Shown one piece after another: positions 34,360 to 47,797 of a DNA stretch of 64,000 nucleotides. The translations under genes were made by a program, and so were the position numbers. How positions within the stretch are numbered: the stretch's first letter is position 1; every line of letters begins with the position of its first letter. The notes under the pieces were generated by a model. The model searched no databases, was not told where the DNA came from, and worked only from the letters and a program-made list of their open reading frames with translations. The DNA comes from an uncultured Chloroflexia bacterium (GTDB lineage Bacteria; Chloroflexota; Dehalococcoidia; DSTF01; WHTK01): assembly GCA_963703905.1 (NCBI GenBank), contig CAVPFY010000006.1:34918-98917 (forward strand). The letters run 5' to 3'.

Positions 34360-35660
34360 GACATGGACGGTTGCCGATGACGATGGGCACAGCAGTCTTC
34401 ATCGTCATCGTCATGGTCTCGCCGCGCGGTACGCCGTCGCCAGCCACACGCCTTCGGTCGAGCCTTCGGCCAGCGGGTCACAGCCGGCCAGCAGCCGGCC
34501 GGCGACGCGGACGTTCTCCAATCGAGCACCCGGCCATCCACGTCCACCGGCTGCATGCGTCCGCGTTGGCGCGCACGCCGGCCGCGTGGATCGGTGGCGA
34601 GCTGCTGACCCAGAAAACTGCGGCTCGAACCAATCGCCCAGGCCTCGCTGGCGCCTGCCACCGGCAGATCCGAACACCGCTTCGCGCAGCATCCCGTGGT
34701 GGTCGCTGGTGATGCCGCCGCCGTAGAGGCCGCCGGTCGCCAGGATGATGCGTGTCCGCTCGAGTAGGTCAGTCGCGCGTCGCGCCCGGCACACGCACGC
34801 CGGTGCATCGCCCGCCCGTCGACATCACCGCCCGCGGCCGTCATGTCGAGCAGGAGCTGCACGCCGGCGCCCTGCCAGCGCCCGTTTGAACGCCGTTGAA
34901 GAGCCGCATCCCCGGCACGCTGGGCGGCAGGGTCGGGATCTCGAAGACGGGCACGCCCAGGCGGTCCTGCAGGTCGCGCCAGGCCTCGGCGTGCCGTTCC
35001 AGCCCGAGCACGGCGGGGAAGCCGACGCGCGTCGCGCCCTCCAGCCTCGGCTTGAGCAGCTACGCGAGGCGCTCTCGCACGTCCGCCCGGTCGAAGAGCC
35101 GCGCCAGCCCGACGGGGGTGGCGTCGAACTTGCTGGTCTGCACTTCCGGCAAGGTCGAAGGCATCGGCCTGCGCGGCGTAACCTTGCCGTGCCAGGTTGT
35201 CGGCGCACAGCGCCGGGTAGAAGTCGCGCCAGCCGTCCGGCCCGGCGATCAGCATGGCGCCGCCATCTCGCAGGTCGCCGCTGCGAAGCTCTCCGGCACG
35301 ACGGCCGCCCGCACCTCGCGCCCAGCGCCGTCGGCAGCACGAAGTTGCCGTTCAGATCCGGATCGCCTGCATAGCTCAGGCCCGCCGGCTCGCACGCCTG
35401 GCGCAGCATCGACGATGCCCGCCCGCGATCGCATCGACCCCCGCCAGCGCGTAGGGGTGCTCCGGGTGCATCGCGATCCAGCGTTCCAGCCCCGCGCCCA
35501 AGGGTTCGGCTGTATCCAGGACGCCGAGCCAACCTGGCATGATGTGCGTCGTGCCGATGCCCGCGGCCAGCACGCTCACCTGCGCGCCGCGCCGACGGGC
35601 CATCCATGCTGCCAGGAGCCCCGCCGGCCCGGCGCCGATGACCAAAACGTCATTCCCATC
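34356..35660 (-). CDS. glpB: Anaerobic glycerol-3-phosphate dehydrogenase subunit B (frameshifted; possibly fused to GlpA)
   Basis: DVLVIGAGPAG, DFYPALCADNL, RVGFPAVLG, FEIPTLPPSVPGMRL, LATGGLYGGG, GVWLATAY. Confidence 0.88.
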
Positions 35661-40202: not shown

Positions 40203-40950
40203 GTGTTCCAGGATTTTGCTCAGGAAGAGCTTCGTCCGCTCGTGCTTCGGCGCGGTGAACAGGGAGTCGGGTGTGGTGTCTTCGACGATCTTGCCCTCAT
40301 CCATGAAGATCGATTCGCTGGGCGGCGGCGCGAGCAAAGCCCATCTCGTGCGTCACTACCGAGCATGGTCATGCCGCTTTTCGCCAGGTCCATCATCACG
40401 TCCAGCACTTCTTTGATCATCTCCGGGTCCAGCGCGCTGGTTGGCTCGTCGAAAAGCATGATCTTGGGATTCATCGCCAGCGCGCGCGCAATGGCGACCC
40501 GCTGTTGCTGCCCACCGGAGAGCTGGCCGGGATAGGAGTCGGCCTTCTCGGGGATGCCGACGCGTGTCCAGCAATTCCAGCGCCGTTCGCGTCGCCTCGT
40601 CTTCACTGCGCTTGCGTACCGATCCGCTGCGCCAGGCGTGATGTTCTGCAGCGCCGTCAGATGGGGAAACAGGTTGAACTGTTGGAACACCATGCCGACT
40701 TCGGCCCGCACCGCGTTGATGTCGGTGGACTTGCGGGTTAGGGGGATGCCGTCCACGATGATTTCGCCCGAGGTGACCGGCTCCAGGTGGTTGATACTGC
40801 GCAGCAGAGTGGATTTGCCCGACCCGCTGGGTCCGATGATGACCAATACCTCGCCGGGCTGCACGTTGAGCGACACATCGTCCAAGCGCATGGCACCTTC
40901 GGCCGAACCATTTATGGACATGGCTGACTGTAATGATCGGTTCGACCGAC
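40203..40950 (-). CDS. Polar amino-acid ABC transporter ATP-binding protein (GlnQ-like; frameshifted)
   Basis: [59 protein letters not shown]. Confidence 0.93.
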
Positions 40951-40959
40951 GCTACACCC

Positions 40960-41823
40960 CTATCCGTCTTGTCTATCGTCGAGCCGCCGTTCCGCCGCCG
41001 TGAAGAGGCGTGTGAAGAACAGCGTCATGATCAGATAGATCAAGGCGACCATCGTGAAGGTATCGAAGCTCAGAAAGCTGCGCGCAACGAACTCACGCCC
41101 GCGCCGGGTCAGGTCAGATACCGCCAGGACCGAAACCAGCGAGGAATCCTTGAGCAAGGTCACGAACTCGTTGCCCACGGGCGGCAGGATCACGCGAATC
41201 GCCTGCGGCAAGATGATGTAACGCATGGACTGCAAATAGTTCATGCCGAGTGAGCGGGCAGCCTCCATCTGACCTTTGGGGATGGATTGAATGCCGGCGC
41301 GGAAGATCTCGGTCATGTAAGCGCCGTAAGCCACGGTGAAGCCGATCACGGCGGCGGTGAATGGCTCAAGCCTGCGATCCAGGATATACTGCCCTGCGGC
41401 CGGGGCAAAGCCGCTGACCCATGTACCTGTGACATCCCGCAACTGCGGCAGCGCGAACCAGATCCACAGTAGCCACACCAACACCGGGATGCCGCGCACT
41501 ATTTCAACGTATAGGGATGCCGTGCCCTTGATGAGCCGGTTGTGCGAAACCCGCCCCAGGCCACCGATCATGCCGACAATCAGGATGAAGAAGAATGAGG
41601 TGATCGTGATTTTAAGTGTGACAACGATGCCATCCCGCACGAAACTGAAAATCTCGGCGTATGGTTCGGGAACGCCCCGCACCAGGAAGGCCACCAGGGC
41701 GACGACCGCGAAAAACAGCAGCCACCAGCGATCAGACCGCGCCCACAACTCGCGGCCCCAATCGTCCAGGCTGGGCCGGACCGTTGTACCGGGTGCAGTG
41801 GCCGGTGAGGCCGGGTCTGCCAT
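40960..41823 (-). CDS. Polar amino-acid ABC transporter permease (HisM/GlnP type)
   Basis: YVEIVRGIPVLV, AYGAYMTEIFRAGIQSIPKGQMEAARSLG, PQAIRVILPP.GNEF..LLKDSSL. Confidence 0.93.
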   Translation of the reverse strand: MADPASPATAPGTTVRPSLDDWGRELWARSDRWWLLFFAVVALVAFLVRGVPEPYAEIFSFVRDGIVVTLKITITSFFFILIVGMIGGLGRVSHNRLIKGTASLYVEIVRGIPVLVWLLWIWFALPQLRDVTGTWVSGFAPAAGQYILDRRLEPFTAAVIGFTVAYGAYMTEIFRAGIQSIPKGQMEAARSLGMNYLQSMRYIILPQAIRVILPPVGNEFVTLLKDSSLVSVLAVSDLTRRGREFVARSFLSFDTFTMVALIYLIMTLFFTRLFTAAERRLDDRQDG

Positions 41824-42009
41824 GCGCTTTTCTCCCTGTGGTGGGGTTGCGGGCGGGATAGCTACTGCCCGCAACGGTCATGACATCGCGATCTGACTAG
41901 GGCACTGCCTGCAATGCAGCCACAGCGGCTTCGTGGTTCGGCTGGTCTTGTGGCCCGCTACATTGTGCGGTGAAAGCCGGGCGTGATCCGTAGGCTATGT
42001 TCCTCGCCC

Positions 42010-42963
42010 CTACCTTCGCAGTCGCGGGTCCAGCGCATCGCGCAGCCCGTCGCCGAGCAGGTTGAAGCCAGCACCGTCAGCATGATCAGCAACGCCGGGG
42101 AAGAAGACCAGGTGCGGCGCGGTGAAGACCTGGTTGCGCTCCGCGCCGAGCATCGAGCCCCATTCGGCCATCGGCGGCTGAGCGCCCAGCCCCAGGAACG
42201 ACAGCGCGGCCGCGTCGAGGATTGCCGTGGCGATGCCCAGCGTGCCCTGCCACGATCAGCGGCGTCAGCGCGTGCGGCAAGATGCTCTTGAAGACCAGCC
42301 GAGGTGGGGGCGACGCCCACTGCGCGTGCGGCCATCACAAAATCCAATTCTTTGACGGACAGGACACTGGCGCGGCTCACGCGCGCATAGGCCGGGATGG
42401 AGACGATGCCGATCGCCAGCAGCGCATTGATCAACCCTTCGCCCAACACCGTGACGATGGCGATGGCCAGCAATAGCGCCGGAAACGCCAGCAACACATC
42501 CATGACCCGCATGATGATGTTGTCGCCCCAGCCGCCCAGCATAACCCGCCAGCGCCCAGCAGCGTGCCGATGACGATGGCAAAGCCCACCGTGGTGAAGC
42601 CCACGATCAGCGACACCCGCGAGCCATAGACCACCCGGCTGAACAAGTCGCGCACGTTGCCGTCGATGCCCAGGATGTGCTGCGGTTGGTCTTCCGGGCA
42701 ACCCAACAGGTGGATACACGGCGGCTGGCGCTTCTTCACCTTCTCGACGCCGATGAGCACCTTGTCCGGCGCGTAGGGCGCGATGATGGGGCGCGGTCAG
42801 CGCCACCAAGACCAGAAGCCGACAGGATGACCATCCCGACAATGGCCGACCGGTTGCGGAAGAGCGCCCGCAGGGCATCCTGCATCGGCGTGCGCGGCGG
42901 ATCGGCTGAGCGACTCGGCTCCGTGCTGGCCGGCGTGATGGCCGTGGCTGTGGCAGTCGTCAT
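42010..42963 (-). CDS. dppC: Peptide/nickel ABC transporter permease, DppC-like (frameshifted)
   Basis: HILGIDGNVRDLFSRVVYG.RVSL, MRVMDVLLAFP, AAALSFLGLGAQPP..EWG.ML, GDGLRDALDPR. Confidence 0.88.
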
Positions 42964-42974
42964 AGGGTGCTAGC

Positions 42975-44056
42975 TCAGGCGGACCCGCGGGTCCAGGAAC
43001 GCGTAGAGCGATGTCTACGAGCAGGTTGACAATGACATAGATTACGGCAATGACCAGCGTGAACCCCTGGACGATCGCATAGTCGCGCGCCTGGATGGCA
43101 TCGAACAGAATGCGACCCACCCCGGACAGATCGAAGATGGTCTCGGTCAGCACGGCGCCGCCCAGCAGGCCGCCCAGCGACAGGCCGATGATCGTCACCA
43201 CCGGGATCATGGCATTGCGGAAGCCATGGCGCATGACGACGACGCTGCTCGCGCAGGCCCTTGGCACGCGCGGTGCGGATGTAGTCCAGGCCCAGCACCT
43301 CGAGCAGGCTGGAGCGGGTCATGCGCGCAATCAGCGCCATGGGGATCGTGCCCAGCGCGATCGCCGGCAGAATCAGGTGCTTGGCCGTATCGCAAAAAGC
43401 CGGTCCAGTTGCCTGTCACCAGGGAGTTAAAGAGATGCAGGTTGGAAAGGAACATCAAGCACCGTGAAGAGCCGGTCCATCGGTAATGGTGAGATTCCAG
43501 CTCTCGATCAGCGAGGGCAGGAGAACGCCCGCCGTATTGCGCCCCGACGGCGGCAGCCAGAATGGGGTGCCCTTCAGCAGCAGCGCAAAGACGTAGGCCA
43601 GCATCAAGCCCAAGCCAGAAGACCGGCATGGAGACGCCGACATTGGCGACCACCATGGTGCCCACGTCCACCGCCGAATTGCGCTTGACGGCCGAGATGA
43701 TCGCCCAGCGGAATGCCCACCAGTGACGGCGAAAATCAGCGCCGCAGAGCGCCAGCTCGATCGTCACCGGCAGTCGCTCGATCAGAATATCGGTGCACCG
43801 GCGGCCGTAGCGGAAGGAATCGCCCAGGTCACCGTGCAGGACATCGCGGAGATAAATGCCGAACTGCACCGGGATCGGCTTGTCCAGCCCGTAGCGCTCG
43901 TTGAAGGCATCGCATACCTGGTCGGTGGCCTTCTCGCCCAGCATGGCGCGGCAGGGGTCGCCAGGCAAGCAGGCGCGCCATGGCGAAGGTGACGAACAGG
44001 ATGCCGAGCAGCACCGGGATGGCAGCCAGCAAGCGCTGGCTGATGAAACGTATCAT
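42975..44056 (-). CDS. dppB: Peptide/nickel ABC transporter permease, DppB-like (frameshifted)
   Basis: [69 protein letters not shown]. Confidence 0.9.
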
Positions 44057-44195: not shown

Positions 44196-46693
44196 TTACT
44201 CCGCAGGCGGTGCGTTCAGGAACTGGCCCCGAACAGCGCCGGGAAGTAGGTGAAGTCGCCGTCGCGGCCCTTGTGCAGCGGGTTCGCGGCGTCCCACTGG
44301 ACCGCGTAGGAGAGCCACCACGTCCTTGGCGATCCAGCGTGCTGCCATCATGGAACTTGACGCCCTCGCGCAGGGTGAAGGTCCACTCGGTCAGGTCGTC
44401 GTTGGCTTCGCAGCTTCTCGCCAGGGCCGGCTCCACATCGGTGCCGCCGACCTCGTAGGCCAGCAGCGACTCATTGATCTGCTCGCAGGCCCGGCAGGAT
44501 CTCGCCGTCCGTCTCGTCGGCGCAGTAGAGGCCGATCGGCTCGGCGTTCTGCATCCAGACGAACTGCGTGCGGCCGCCCGGAGTCCATCACGCGAAGCTC
44601 TCGTGCGTCAGCGGGCTGGCGTGCGCGCCCTCGACGTCAGCCTTGAAGGCCGTCGCCGAACCGCCGTGCGCCACGGGCATCATCGGCACGTGCTGCTTGA
44701 CCAGGTCGTTGGCCTCGTCGTAGAGCTGCTTGCGCTGCGGCCTGGTCGGCCAGCGGCGGCCTCCTTCAGGATGGTCGTCGATATCCGGGAAGCCTGTGCC
44801 GAACTGCGGCGAAGCGCCTGCGCCGAAGTGGTAGTCCAGGAAGTTGGTCTGATCGGGATAGTCGGCGCCCCAGCCCAGCAGGTACAGCGTGCAGCGTCGC
44901 CCTTGATCGCCGCGTCGAGGAAAGCGCCAGACTCCATGACGTCGATCTCGGCGTCGATGCCCAGGTTCTGCTTGAGCTGGGCCTGGATGTCCTGCGCCAC
45001 CACGCCGGGCTCGGGCAGGTAGCCGCGCACCACGTCGCGGTAGGAGAGCTCGGTCTCGAAGCCGTTCGTCGAAGCCCGCTTCGGTCAGCAGCTTCTTGGC
45101 CGTCGGCCGGGTCGAACTCGTACCAGTCCTCGCCCTCGCAGCCGCCGAGGATGGCGCAGGCGTGAAGTGGGTCGCCACCGATCGAGCCCGTCGGGATAGA
45201 AGTTGTCGACGATGCGCTGGCGGTCGATGCCCATGGCGATCGCCTGGCGCACCTTCTCGTTGTCGAAGGGCGCTGATCGTGTTGTTCATGCCGAGGTAGA
45301 AGATGTTCAGCGCGGCGCGCGGGTACAGCTTCAGCGTCGTCGTCGCCCTCGATCGTGGCGAAGTCATCCGGGCCGGGGTTGTCGATGCCGTCCACGGTGC
45401 CGGACTGCAGCTCGAGCAGGCGGGCCGCGCCTTCCGTGCTCCAGCGGAAGACCAGGGTCTCGGCCTTGGCCGGTTCGCCCCAGTAGTTCGGGTTCGGCTT
45501 CAGGATGATGCTGTCGCCCTTGCGCCACTCCTCGAGCATGTAGGGGCCGGTGCCGACGGGCTTTCGGTCAGCGATCCCCGCCGCCGCCGGTCGCTCTCCA
45601 GGTAGGCCTTCGGAAGGCTGGATCGGCGAAGGCCGAGAAGGCAACCTTGGAGGGGAAGGCCACATCGGCTGGCACAGAGCGTGAACTTGACCGTCTGATC
45701 GTCCACCGCCTCGATGGACTTGATGCTCGCCGCCGTAGTCGCAGTTGGCGGCCTCGTAGCTGGTGTCGGTCACGGTCTTCGCCTGGTAGCCGCCCTCAGC
45801 CGGCAGCAGCCGGCTTCAGCGGCTCGCGCCGATCCACTTCGCGTAGATCTTGTCGTACTCGCCGCTGGCCTTGACGTTCTGCCAGGCCGGCGTTGAACAG
45901 CGGCAGAGACCTGCTTGGGATCGCCCTTCTGGACGGTCAGCGCATAGTACTCGTTCGGTGACGATCTCGCCGACGATCATCAGCTTGCCCTTGAACTGCT
46001 CGGACTGCAGCGCATAAGTTGGCGGCCACGGGGGTATCCACGATCACGGCGTCGATGTTCTTGTTGAGCAGGTCCAGCATGGCCAGGTCAGGCGTGTCGT
46101 ATTGCTTCAGGGTCGGCGTCCTTGATCTTGTCACCGACGTAGATCGCGCCGGTCGTGCCGATCTGCGCGCCGACCGTCTTGCCCGCCAGAGTCCGTCTCG
46201 GTCTTGATGGCGGCTGTCATCCGCCCGCACCACGACGGCCTGATTGGCATCGAAGTACGGGTCGGAGAAGTCGTACTTCTTCTTGCGCTCATCGGTGATG
46301 GTGACCGAGGAGAGGATGCCGTCGTAGGCGCCGCCCTCCAGGCCGGCGAAGATGCCGTCCCAGGCGGTGTTCTTGATCTCGACCTCGAACTCCTGATCCT
46401 TCGCGATGGCCGTGATCAGGTCCATGTCGAAGCCGACGATGTTCTTGCTCTCGTCCACGAACTCCATGGGCGGGAACGATGCATCGCTGGCGATGACGAA
46501 CTTCTTGGCCGCTGGCGCCGCGGTCGGCTCGGGGGCCGGTGCTTGGGCGCCTCGGTCGGTTCGGCGGCAGCGGGCGCTTCGGTAGGGCCGCGGGCTCCGC
46601 AGCCGGCGCGGGCGCGCGCCTGGCGCAGCCGGCCAGCAACCCCAACACCAGGATGGCGAGGGCTGCAATGCTCAGGAACTTGAACAGCTTCAT
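44196..46693 (-). CDS. Lipoprotein substrate-binding protein, apparent fusion of SBP family 3 (amino acid) and circularly permuted SBP family 5 (peptide) domains (frameshifted)
   Basis: Signal peptide and lipobox LLAGC; family-3 domain ASDASFPPMEF..GFDMDL..TAWDGIFAGL..ITDERKKKYDFSDPY..GAQIGTTG..YDKIYAKW; short Ala/Glu linker; family-5 domain PVGTGPY....W..GD.I.L..NP.YWG, IFYLGMN, KVRQAIAM.IDR, GWGADYPD; single stop at 44196. Confidence 0.8.
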
Positions 46694-46873: not shown

Positions 46874-47762
46874 TCAAGGTGCCAGACCAGCCGGTTTGCA
46901 GCGACAGGTCGTCGTCGACTCGAGTTTCGGCCTGCAAGGCGCTCAGGCACGCCAGCACCGTCGTTTGGGTCAGCCAGTAGATCACCGGGTTCGGGATGTT
47001 GACGCCCAGGTGGTCGGCCGTGAGCCGCACGATCTCACCTACCTCATCGGCCTCTGATAGCGCCGCCGACCGCGTCGCGGATTTCGACCAGACGCGCCGC
47101 GTTCGATGTGCGCCCACGGCCCAATCTCGGCCTCCGCCGGGCCATGCCCCGGCACGAATGCGGTCACCTGCCCGTCGAGATTCGGCAGCGTCCGCCAGGG
47201 TCGCAGCCGTTCGTCGCACGTCCACATAGAAGGGAATGCCGTGCTTCTGCAGCACTTCCGGGGCGAAGCAAGCGTCGGCGAGAAAGCAGACGCCGCCGCC
47301 GACGATCATCATCTGATTCGGCGAGTGACCCGGTGCGGGCAGGATACGGGACGGCACACCGCCTAGCACCTGATCCCCCGTCCCTAGCACCCCGTCCACC
47401 GGGCACGGCTCGGCCAGGGTGAACTTGTGGCGCAGCTCGGCGATGGGAGCGCGCCGGAGAAGAGGTAGAGCGGCTCCAGATCGGGTTGGCCACCACGGCC
47501 GCTTCCAGCGCCGGCGCGTAGACCGGCGCGCCCGTGCGCGCGCGGATCGTCGCCGCGCCGCCGAAGTGGTCGGCGTGCGCGTGGGTGATGACGACGGCGC
47601 CAAGATGTGACCCAGGCTCTCGACGATGGCGCAGGATCTTCTTGGCAGTGTCGCGATCCAGGCCGGTGTCCACCAGCACCGCGCTGGCCATCCTGCGACG
47701 ATCAGGCCGGCGTTCGAGCCGCCGCGGAGTTGATAGGCTGTTCGGTGAGCGGACAGTTCCAT
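46870..47762 (-). CDS. MBL-fold metallo-hydrolase (frameshifted)
   Basis: [16 protein letters not shown] (HxHxDH), PGHSP, FLADA, VPGHG. Confidence 0.88.
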
Positions 47763-47797
47763 AATGCAAAACGTGGTGCGATTGCGTGCACCGTCGC

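Follow-up and report, generated by a model that had tools for sequence, protein, structure and literature searches.

Can a single lipid-anchored receptor combine two substrate-binding proteins (SBPs) of different families and, if so, which ATP-binding cassette (ABC) translocators would such a receptor serve? The question is raised by a gene at 44196-46693 on the minus strand of the window, by which is meant the whole stretch of 64,000 nucleotides that was analysed (positions 34,918 to 98,917 of contig CAVPFY010000006.1 in assembly GCA_963703905.1, from an uncultured Chloroflexota bacterium). An earlier reading of this DNA, made from the letters alone (hereafter the sequence-only reading), had proposed that a family-3, amino-acid-binding, domain and a family-5, peptide-binding, domain lie here on one lipoprotein. 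Both domains are indeed found in the stitched window protein, PF00497 over residues 66-287 at 5e-40 (136.7 bits against a cut-off of 26.4) and PF00496 at 5.5e-87 (292.7 bits against a cut-off of 32.4). Moreover, the check which that reading had suggested, a search for proteins of about 800 residues with both PF00497 and PF00496, returned more than 100 uninterrupted homologues when made with the stitched protein, these being 53-76% identical to the query over 91-100% of its length. The frame-corrected window protein is 79% identical to one intact protein of 821 residues (P0001). On these sequence comparisons the window gene is confirmed as one that would encode a single lipid-anchored protein, with an amino-acid-binding module followed by a circularly permuted dipeptide-binding module. 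What emerges is a family that is real, widespread and apparently undescribed, and that is a mechanistically plausible extension of known principles. The parts of the gene, hereafter the SBP3-cpSBP5 fusion, are as follows.

44196-46693, minus strand: fused SBP3-cpSBP5 lipoprotein gene, a conceptual open reading frame (ORF) of ~825 residues, frameshifted in the assembly and with two in-frame TGA codons
46625-46693, minus strand: signal peptide and lipobox, MKLFKFLSIAALAILVLGLLAGC, with Cys23; the N-terminus is identical to that of P0001
46507-46624, minus strand: flexible tether rich in Ala, Pro, Glu and Thr, from the lipid anchor to the first module, disordered in the AlphaFold2 (AF2) model of a clean orthologue, P0020
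45828-46506, minus strand: family-3 (PF00497) polar-amino-acid-binding module, ArtJ/GlnH/AncQR-like by Pfam, PDB and Foldseek matches
45774-45827, minus strand: inter-module linker of Ala, Glu and Pro, aligned at the DNA level to a clean relative (L090) and containing a very probably artefactual TGA at 45818-45816
44589-45773, minus strand: segment A of the family-5 module, corresponding to residues ~123-502 of Escherichia coli DppA, with the motifs VVR (DppA R355) and GWGAD (DppA D408)
44588-44590, minus strand: second in-frame TGA, apparently artefactual, within the family-5 fold, at a -1/+1 indel pair
44199-44587, minus strand: segment B of the family-5 module, corresponding to DppA residues ~4-120, normally the N-terminus, which makes the module a circular permutant

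The ATG at 46693 is preceded by AGGAGG, and the product begins with a signal peptide whose lipobox, LLAGC, fits the L-[AS]-[GA]-C pattern of lipoproteins with its cysteine at residue 23. This cysteine is invariant in 56 of 56 fusion homologues, and lipidation of the fused protein is predicted from the lipobox. Beyond the signal peptide no one frame is open throughout, and the modules are read across three frames. The family-5 module, which stops at the TAA at 44198-44196, has no signal peptide, no Shine-Dalgarno sequence and no start of its own, just as had been described from the letters alone together with the single signal peptide and lipobox at 46693. The spacing from WIG, at the end of the family-3 module, to NCDYGG is ~27 codons in the window (~75 nt from KWIG to NCDYGG), the median spacer in clean fusions being 25 residues, and the tether which precedes the family-3 module ranges from 27 to 55 residues among homologues, with a median of 40. 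In the AF2 model of P0020 (overall predicted local distance difference test score, pLDDT, 86.4) two well-folded modules, at residues 57-285 and 297-817, fold independently and are parted by a disordered linker, and the tether at residues 19-56 is also disordered (pLDDT < 50).

The family-3 module ends in ...GEYDKIYAKWIG at 45830-45828. Its best sequence match in the PDB is 6h30 (1e-54), with 4zv1 also matched (6e-47), and a Foldseek search with the corresponding module of P0020 (residues 57-285, pLDDT ~90) returned ArtJ (2q2a), AncQR (4zv2) and ArgBP (6svf) at 35-42% identity. The module therefore shares its fold with ArtJ, AncQR and GlnH (2q2a, 4zv1, 1ggg), at 35-42% identity, and with it the alpha-carboxylate Arg and the Thr-Thr motif. 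The roles of the Arg (in S-x-T-I-T-x-x-R), the Thr-Thr pair and the Asp in clamping the alpha-carboxylate and alpha-amino groups are assigned after the HisJ/LAO structures, an assignment that we assume to carry over. In the fusion homologues the equivalents of P0020 R132, T175 and T176 are invariant (56/56), and that of D212 is kept in 47 of the 56. ArtJ, AncQR and GlnH are stand-alone SBPs, whereas the module here is the membrane-proximal one of a two-module lipoprotein; it is also the sole SBP3 detected in this genome.

The family-5 module is of a more unusual construction, in that it does not follow the canonical N-to-C order of the SBP_bac_5 fold elements. Query residues 15-391 align to residues 122-502 of DppA/GbpA, and query residues 400-509 align to residues 4-120. 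Since every clean homologue has the same order, the permutation does not arise from misassembly, which was considered and ruled out; the order is shared by stand-alone lipoproteins (for example P0094), by fusions with other SBPs and by tandem doublets (P0013 and P0031), in which a unit of 'normal' order spans the junction between two permuted copies. In spite of the permutation, the fold appears to be that of a dipeptide-binding protein. The region of segment B has a pLDDT of 88-97 in the model of P0020, whose C-terminal module gives GbpA (3m8u) and DppA (1dpp) in Foldseek with a template-modelling (TM) score of 0.68 over ~380 residues, and sequence matches of the module to DppA/GbpA lie between 1e-66 and 1e-71. 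The best matches of this module in both sequence and fold are, in other words, E. coli DppA of the DppABCDF importer (1dpp, 8z1y) and Haemophilus parasuis GbpA (3m8u). In 56/56 fusions the residues corresponding to DppA Arg355 and Asp408 (R545 and D598 of P0020) are invariant, Arg355 being a residue that we take to clamp the peptide terminus. A role in this clamping has been described for Asp408 (PMC3295651). The window module resembles DppA further in being followed by DppB/DppC-like permeases; unlike DppA and GbpA, it is permuted, is without its own signal peptide and stands in an operon without DppD/F. The NCBIfam equivalog for DppA, NF043070, gives 242 bits against a cut-off of 1005, and the module is thus best regarded, from its sequence, as DppA-like rather than as a DppA orthologue. 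In species-representative genomes, at least 599 loci were counted for modules with this permuted order. Chloroflexota account for most of them, and a few belong to Acidimicrobiia, among them the isolate Ilumatobacter nonamiensis. With their ligand-clamping residues kept, both modules of the fused protein look functional.

Necessarily, the single-protein interpretation depends on what is made of the TGA at 45818-45816, which as assembled is in frame with both flanks. The genome assembly (3.9 Mb in 8 contigs) is only 60% complete by score, and nearly all genes of the region are fragmented, the neighbours being as frameshifted as the fusion gene; together, the fragmentation and the low completeness fit an unpolished long-read assembly. 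DNA alignment was made to L090, the Joint Genome Institute (JGI) contig which encodes the intact P0001, the closest clean relative. Against this reference the window gene is 87.7% identical and shows 75 indel events, all but 2 of them of lengths not divisible by three; on balance it is 32 bases longer. A frameshift-aware alignment to P0001 has to change frame no fewer than 30 times within 2498 nt (22 times by +1 and 8 times by -1). The error rate over 44196-46693 is thus ~1 frameshift per 83 nt, with 1-nt insertions favoured, and such errors also make in-frame stops. Because of this error rate, any reading of the window at the level of ORFs needs a clean relative as its guide. The sequence-only reading had placed the TGA in an indel-rich patch: the TGA is present, but there is no special patch, the whole window being equally indel-rich.

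At the junction itself, a stretch of 23 nt contains three insertions of one base each relative to L090, at ~45826, 45813 and 45804. The L090 junction reads ATCGGCG-GTGCCGCTGAAG-CGGCTGCT-CCGGTTGAGGGC and that of the window ATCGGCGCGAGCCGCTGAAGCCGGCTGCTGCCGGCTGAGGGC. With the three inserted bases removed the window gives WIG.AAEAAAPAEGGYQ against WIGGAAEAAAPVEGGNQ in P0001, a linker that is identical at ~15 of 17 positions, and the TGA is seen to be GCT-GAA in a frame shifted by one base. The two flanks share a frame because the three insertions total three bases. A second in-frame TGA, at 44590-44588, tells of the same kind of error: the window reads ESFA*WTPGG where the relative has ENFAVMTPGD, owing to a -1/+1 pair 6 nt apart, and since it sits in the middle of the family-5 fold it cannot be a gene boundary. 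Recoding of the TGA was also considered and ruled out, as clean relatives have an ordinary Ala/Glu/Pro linker without a stop and the TGA lies off the ancestral frame. On these comparisons the TGA at 45818-45816 is very probably an artefact of insertion errors, and the true gene would be one open frame.

It could be argued instead that the stop is real, such that the gene is a recently split or pseudogenised form of the fused gene whose family-5 part is not exported. In favour of this are the frame that the TGA shares with both flanks, the need for three insertions within 23 nt if it is to be explained away, and the occurrence of split SBP3/cpSBP5 gene pairs in other species. Those pairs, however, look different. 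In L102, one of two valid two-gene controls, the SBP3 ends in ...YDQIYAKWIGGKPPAAPAQ* and is followed by a permuted family-5 gene with its own signal peptide, a lipobox (MLLGVLAGC) and a linker of ~70 residues; in L029, the other, two separate lipoprotein genes lie in reversed order. At both loci the second gene brings a signal peptide and lipobox of its own as well as ~20-70 residues of linker, and there is no space for such elements in the window. Its linker DNA equals that of the clean fused relative bar three single-base insertions, at least 30 frameshifts occur in the gene along with another, equally in-frame, TGA in mid-fold, and the neighbouring genes are equally broken. A real stop is accordingly regarded as highly improbable. 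A third candidate two-gene locus, L101 (G071:C12:39600-42700), was dropped as a control: it lies in a long-read metagenome-assembled genome (MAG) in which the fusion is seemingly split, with the linker and C-terminus out of frame. Its sequence suggests that artefactual splitting of this gene recurs in public MAGs.

If the gene is taken as one fused receptor, the next matter is what it serves. The genes which follow it on the same strand are listed below.

42973-44056, minus strand: DppB/NikB-like peptide-type permease, frameshifted in the assembly
~41958-42963, minus strand: DppC/GsiD-like peptide-type permease, frameshifted in the assembly
40960-41874, minus strand: GlnP-type polar-amino-acid permease, an intact ORF of 304 residues, assigned as HEQRo_perm_3TM by NCBIfam on a clean orthologue
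~40203-40943, minus strand: GlnQ-like ATPase, frameshifted in the assembly

These are the four genes (dppB, dppC, a polar amino-acid permease and a GlnQ-type ATPase) that had been proposed from the letters, and all are found, between 44056 and 40203; plsY comes next after the ATPase gene, on the same strand. A tblastn search of the genome for GlnP-type permeases gave a single match, the one in this operon. Gene context was compared over 80 named loci, and the predicted co-location of the fusion with both permease types was borne out: at 13 of the 15 fusion loci with enough flank, DppB-DppC is followed by a GlnP-type permease and GlnQ, as against none of ~55 loci of stand-alone permuted SBP5, where no GlnP-type permease with GlnQ lies directly downstream. 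At those ~55 loci DppB-DppC is downstream of the gene, with DppD/F present also in ~12. In three fusion loci (L002, L021 and L030) DppD/DppF are still present, placed after DppC and before the amino-acid permease. The correspondence extends to larger proteins. A triple fusion of LivK-like, SBP3 and cpSBP5 modules (L091) is flanked by LivHMGF and by DppBC, a GlnP-type permease and GlnQ; another, of SBP_bac_8, SBP3 and cpSBP5 (L092), is flanked by two sugar-type permeases and DppBCDF, the L092 locus showing neither a GlnP-type permease nor GlnQ. In other words, the modules of one lipoprotein mostly mirror the translocators encoded beside it, which amounts to evidence of the Rosetta-stone type that each module serves its own transporter.

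The same evidence bears on the notion that just one of the modules works as a receptor for transport, while the other has become a spacer, a scaffold or a sensor, for example by holding the permuted family-5 module off the membrane or by regulating the partner translocator. That the permuted family-5 module invariably closes the chain, behind a wide range of N-terminal partners, is what might be expected of such an arrangement, as are the few fusion loci which lack one of the permease sets. Yet in both modules the clamping residues show little or no variation among 56 divergent fusions, cognate permeases for both are co-encoded in 13/15 loci, and the GlnP-type permease of the operon, which is alone in the genome, has no other detectable SBP3 partner. 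A single working receptor is therefore considered very unlikely.

Synteny of the window with L001 and L003 extends from the Liv operon up to and including plsY. All three conserve a gene for a metallo-beta-lactamase (MBL)-fold hydrolase (window ~46900-47770, minus strand; L001:8927-9820; L003), which separates LivKHMGF from the fusion and falls below every NCBIfam cut-off. On the contig that L101 shares with L032, the genes immediately after the fusion are those for a GlnP-type permease and GlnQ, with no DppBC.

With GlnQ the only ATPase in the operon, what energises DppB/DppC has to be considered. The sequence-only reading had spoken of a hybrid ABC importer, in which the GlnQ-type ATPase would drive both the GlnP-type permease and DppB/DppC from one fused receptor. 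Consistent with this, GlnQ is the sole operon ATPase in the window and in its closest syntenic relatives (L001, L003, L012, L019 and others), and DppD/F appear to have been lost from an arrangement that survives in L002, L021 and L030. Against it stands the behaviour of DppBC elsewhere. Some 43 of the ~55 stand-alone cpSBP5-DppBC cassettes lack DppDF and also lack GlnQ, which means that DppBC without an ATPase is both older than the merger and independent of it. Of the 12 DppBC pairs in this genome (among them those at C1:285.7k, C1:490.7k, C4:16.4k and C7:68.5k), 11 stand without an ATPase beside them, and an orphan DppD-DppF pair is present at C1:705805-707795 with no permease within 3 kb. 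Where ATPases have been retained beside these DppBC genes they are of the DppD/F type, with the oligo_HPY domain. The hybrid importer thus does not hold up well, and is held to be decidedly unlikely. For type I sugar importers, the use of orphan multitask ATPases is established (PMC7658222), and in this regard the genome resembles those in which MsmX, MsmK or MsiK operate, with many ATPase-less importer operons and an orphan ATPase locus in one genome; those importers, however, are of the sugar (carbohydrate uptake transporter 1, CUT1) type with a single MalK-like nucleotide-binding domain (NBD), whereas here there is a putative DppD/DppF heterodimer and the permeases are of the peptide type. 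By analogy, this suggests that multitask ATPases are shared among Dpp/Opp-type importers in this organism.

The overall picture that we favour, with a probability of about 0.65, is that of one dual-receptor lipoprotein for two separate translocators, with DppBC powered in trans and the stop artefactual. In this model a lipid-anchored receptor of ~825 residues would consist of a tether of ~40 residues, an ArtJ/GlnH-type module, a flexible linker and a permuted DppA/GbpA-type module, the last of which may bind dipeptides and possibly glutathione. Its gene would head a merged operon for two separate type I ABC translocators, such that the two modules would each bind a separate ligand and dock separately, the family-3 module on the GlnQ-driven permease of the GlnP type and the family-5 module on the DppB/DppC heterodimer. 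The latter would be energised not by GlnQ but by DppD/DppF-type ATPases encoded elsewhere, for which the orphan pair at C1:705.8-707.8 kb is a candidate. The ligand classes, docking partners and trans-acting ATPase are all inferred, as is the view that one fused protein hands its ligands on to two translocators. The benefit of the fusion would presumably lie in a single anchor, a fixed 1:1 stoichiometry and the co-localised uptake of peptides and amino acids.

Several points weigh against this dual-receptor model. For all members of the family it draws on sequence, gene context and predicted structure. The artefactual status of the TGA comes solely from comparison with relatives, three insertions in 23 nt exceed what the average error density predicts, and the frameshift-aware aligner favoured in-frame read-through of the TGA. 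Since in a protein aligner three frameshift penalties outweigh one stop read through, it is on the DNA alignment that the argument at the junction is founded. As for the operon, fusion loci L025 and L020 are without the amino-acid permease and L032 is without DppBC. Finally, multitask ATPases are documented for sugar importers and not for those of the Dpp/Opp type, and the orphan DppDF pair is just 50-65% identical to the operon-encoded DppDF of L002.

Tandem substrate-binding domains (SBDs) are a key model for receptor competition for a translocator, and to our knowledge are known solely as same-family repeats fused to one permease, as in GlnPQ and its relatives. The likeness to GlnPQ of Lactococcus lactis (6h30) is nonetheless considerable: there are two SBDs per polypeptide with short flexible linkers, the SBP3 module is homologous to both GlnPQ SBDs (1e-54), and the importer is of the polar-amino-acid-transport (PAAT) type with a GlnQ-type ATPase. 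The differences are that both SBDs of GlnPQ are of family 3 and feed the same translocator, where the modules here belong to structural clusters F and C and two translocators lie downstream; and that the GlnPQ SBDs are covalently fused to the permease, where here there is a separate lipoprotein gene, ending at TAA 44198-44196, and separate permeases. No description of a cross-family SBP fusion or of a permuted family-5 SBP was found in the literature searched, which agrees with the earlier statement that no described 3+5 fusion was known. Public annotations of the fused proteins are of the generic form 'peptide/nickel substrate-binding protein', and because automated annotation names them in this way the amino-acid uptake capacity of Anaerolineae MAGs is under-called; noisy long-read MAGs, moreover, split the fusion gene artificially. 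The family offers a natural system in which to ask whether the tethering of unrelated receptors has an effect on the kinetics of delivery, on stoichiometry or on how transporters are arranged in space. It further provides a cluster-C binding protein that tolerates natural circular permutation and then takes many N-terminal partners, a property of use in the engineering of biosensors and other proteins.

As to its distribution, the named carriers of the fusion are Chloroflexota MAGs (Anaerolineae, Caldilineales and Ardenticatenia), and the junctions in clean homologues are open Ala/Glu/Pro linkers. In a survey of one Anaerolineae-type order, centred on a clean carrier genome and covering 37 species representatives, the module pair is present in 34 species, ~19 of the 37 having it in a single stop-free frame of at least 819 residues. 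The fusion was not found among 40 taxonomic relatives of the genome (G001-G040), the same genus included, where there are just matches of ~30% identity to ordinary SBP5; yet more than 20 kb of the window are in synteny with the Anaerolineae MAGs L001 and L003, neither of which is among those 40. It is possible that the operon is patchy or transferred, that contig C6 is mis-binned, or that an error-ridden genome has been poorly placed.

Larger SBP chains also occur (examples being P0117, P0059, P0065, P0080 and P0054, and the genes at L091:10001-13552 and L092:10001-13795). These include LivK-like+cpSBP5 (911 residues), LivK-like+SBP3+cpSBP5 (1183 residues) and SBP_bac_8+SBP3+cpSBP5 (~1265 residues). 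The permuted family-5 module is C-terminal in all of the chains, its N-terminal partners being LivK-like, SBP_bac_8, SBP3 or another cpSBP5. A broader proposal, which is to be taken as one joint claim and which we regard as unlikely, is that Chloroflexota build modular lipoproteins from two or three SBPs of different structural clusters on one anchor, with the permuted DppA-like module last, and that such multi-receptor chains hold two or three ABC translocators together as one uptake assembly or allow a GlnQ-type ATPase to serve peptide-type permeases. If either were so, the uptake of peptides and of free amino acids would be coupled.

One SBP chain, of 989 residues, carries an added cytochrome-c-type domain (PF13442). 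At L002:19054-21474, a second SBP3-cpSBP5 fusion ends the operon of DppBCDF, GlnP-type permease and GlnQ, with modules that share 25% and 35% identity with their P0020 counterparts; this degree of divergence implies old paralogous fusions, probably of different specificities.

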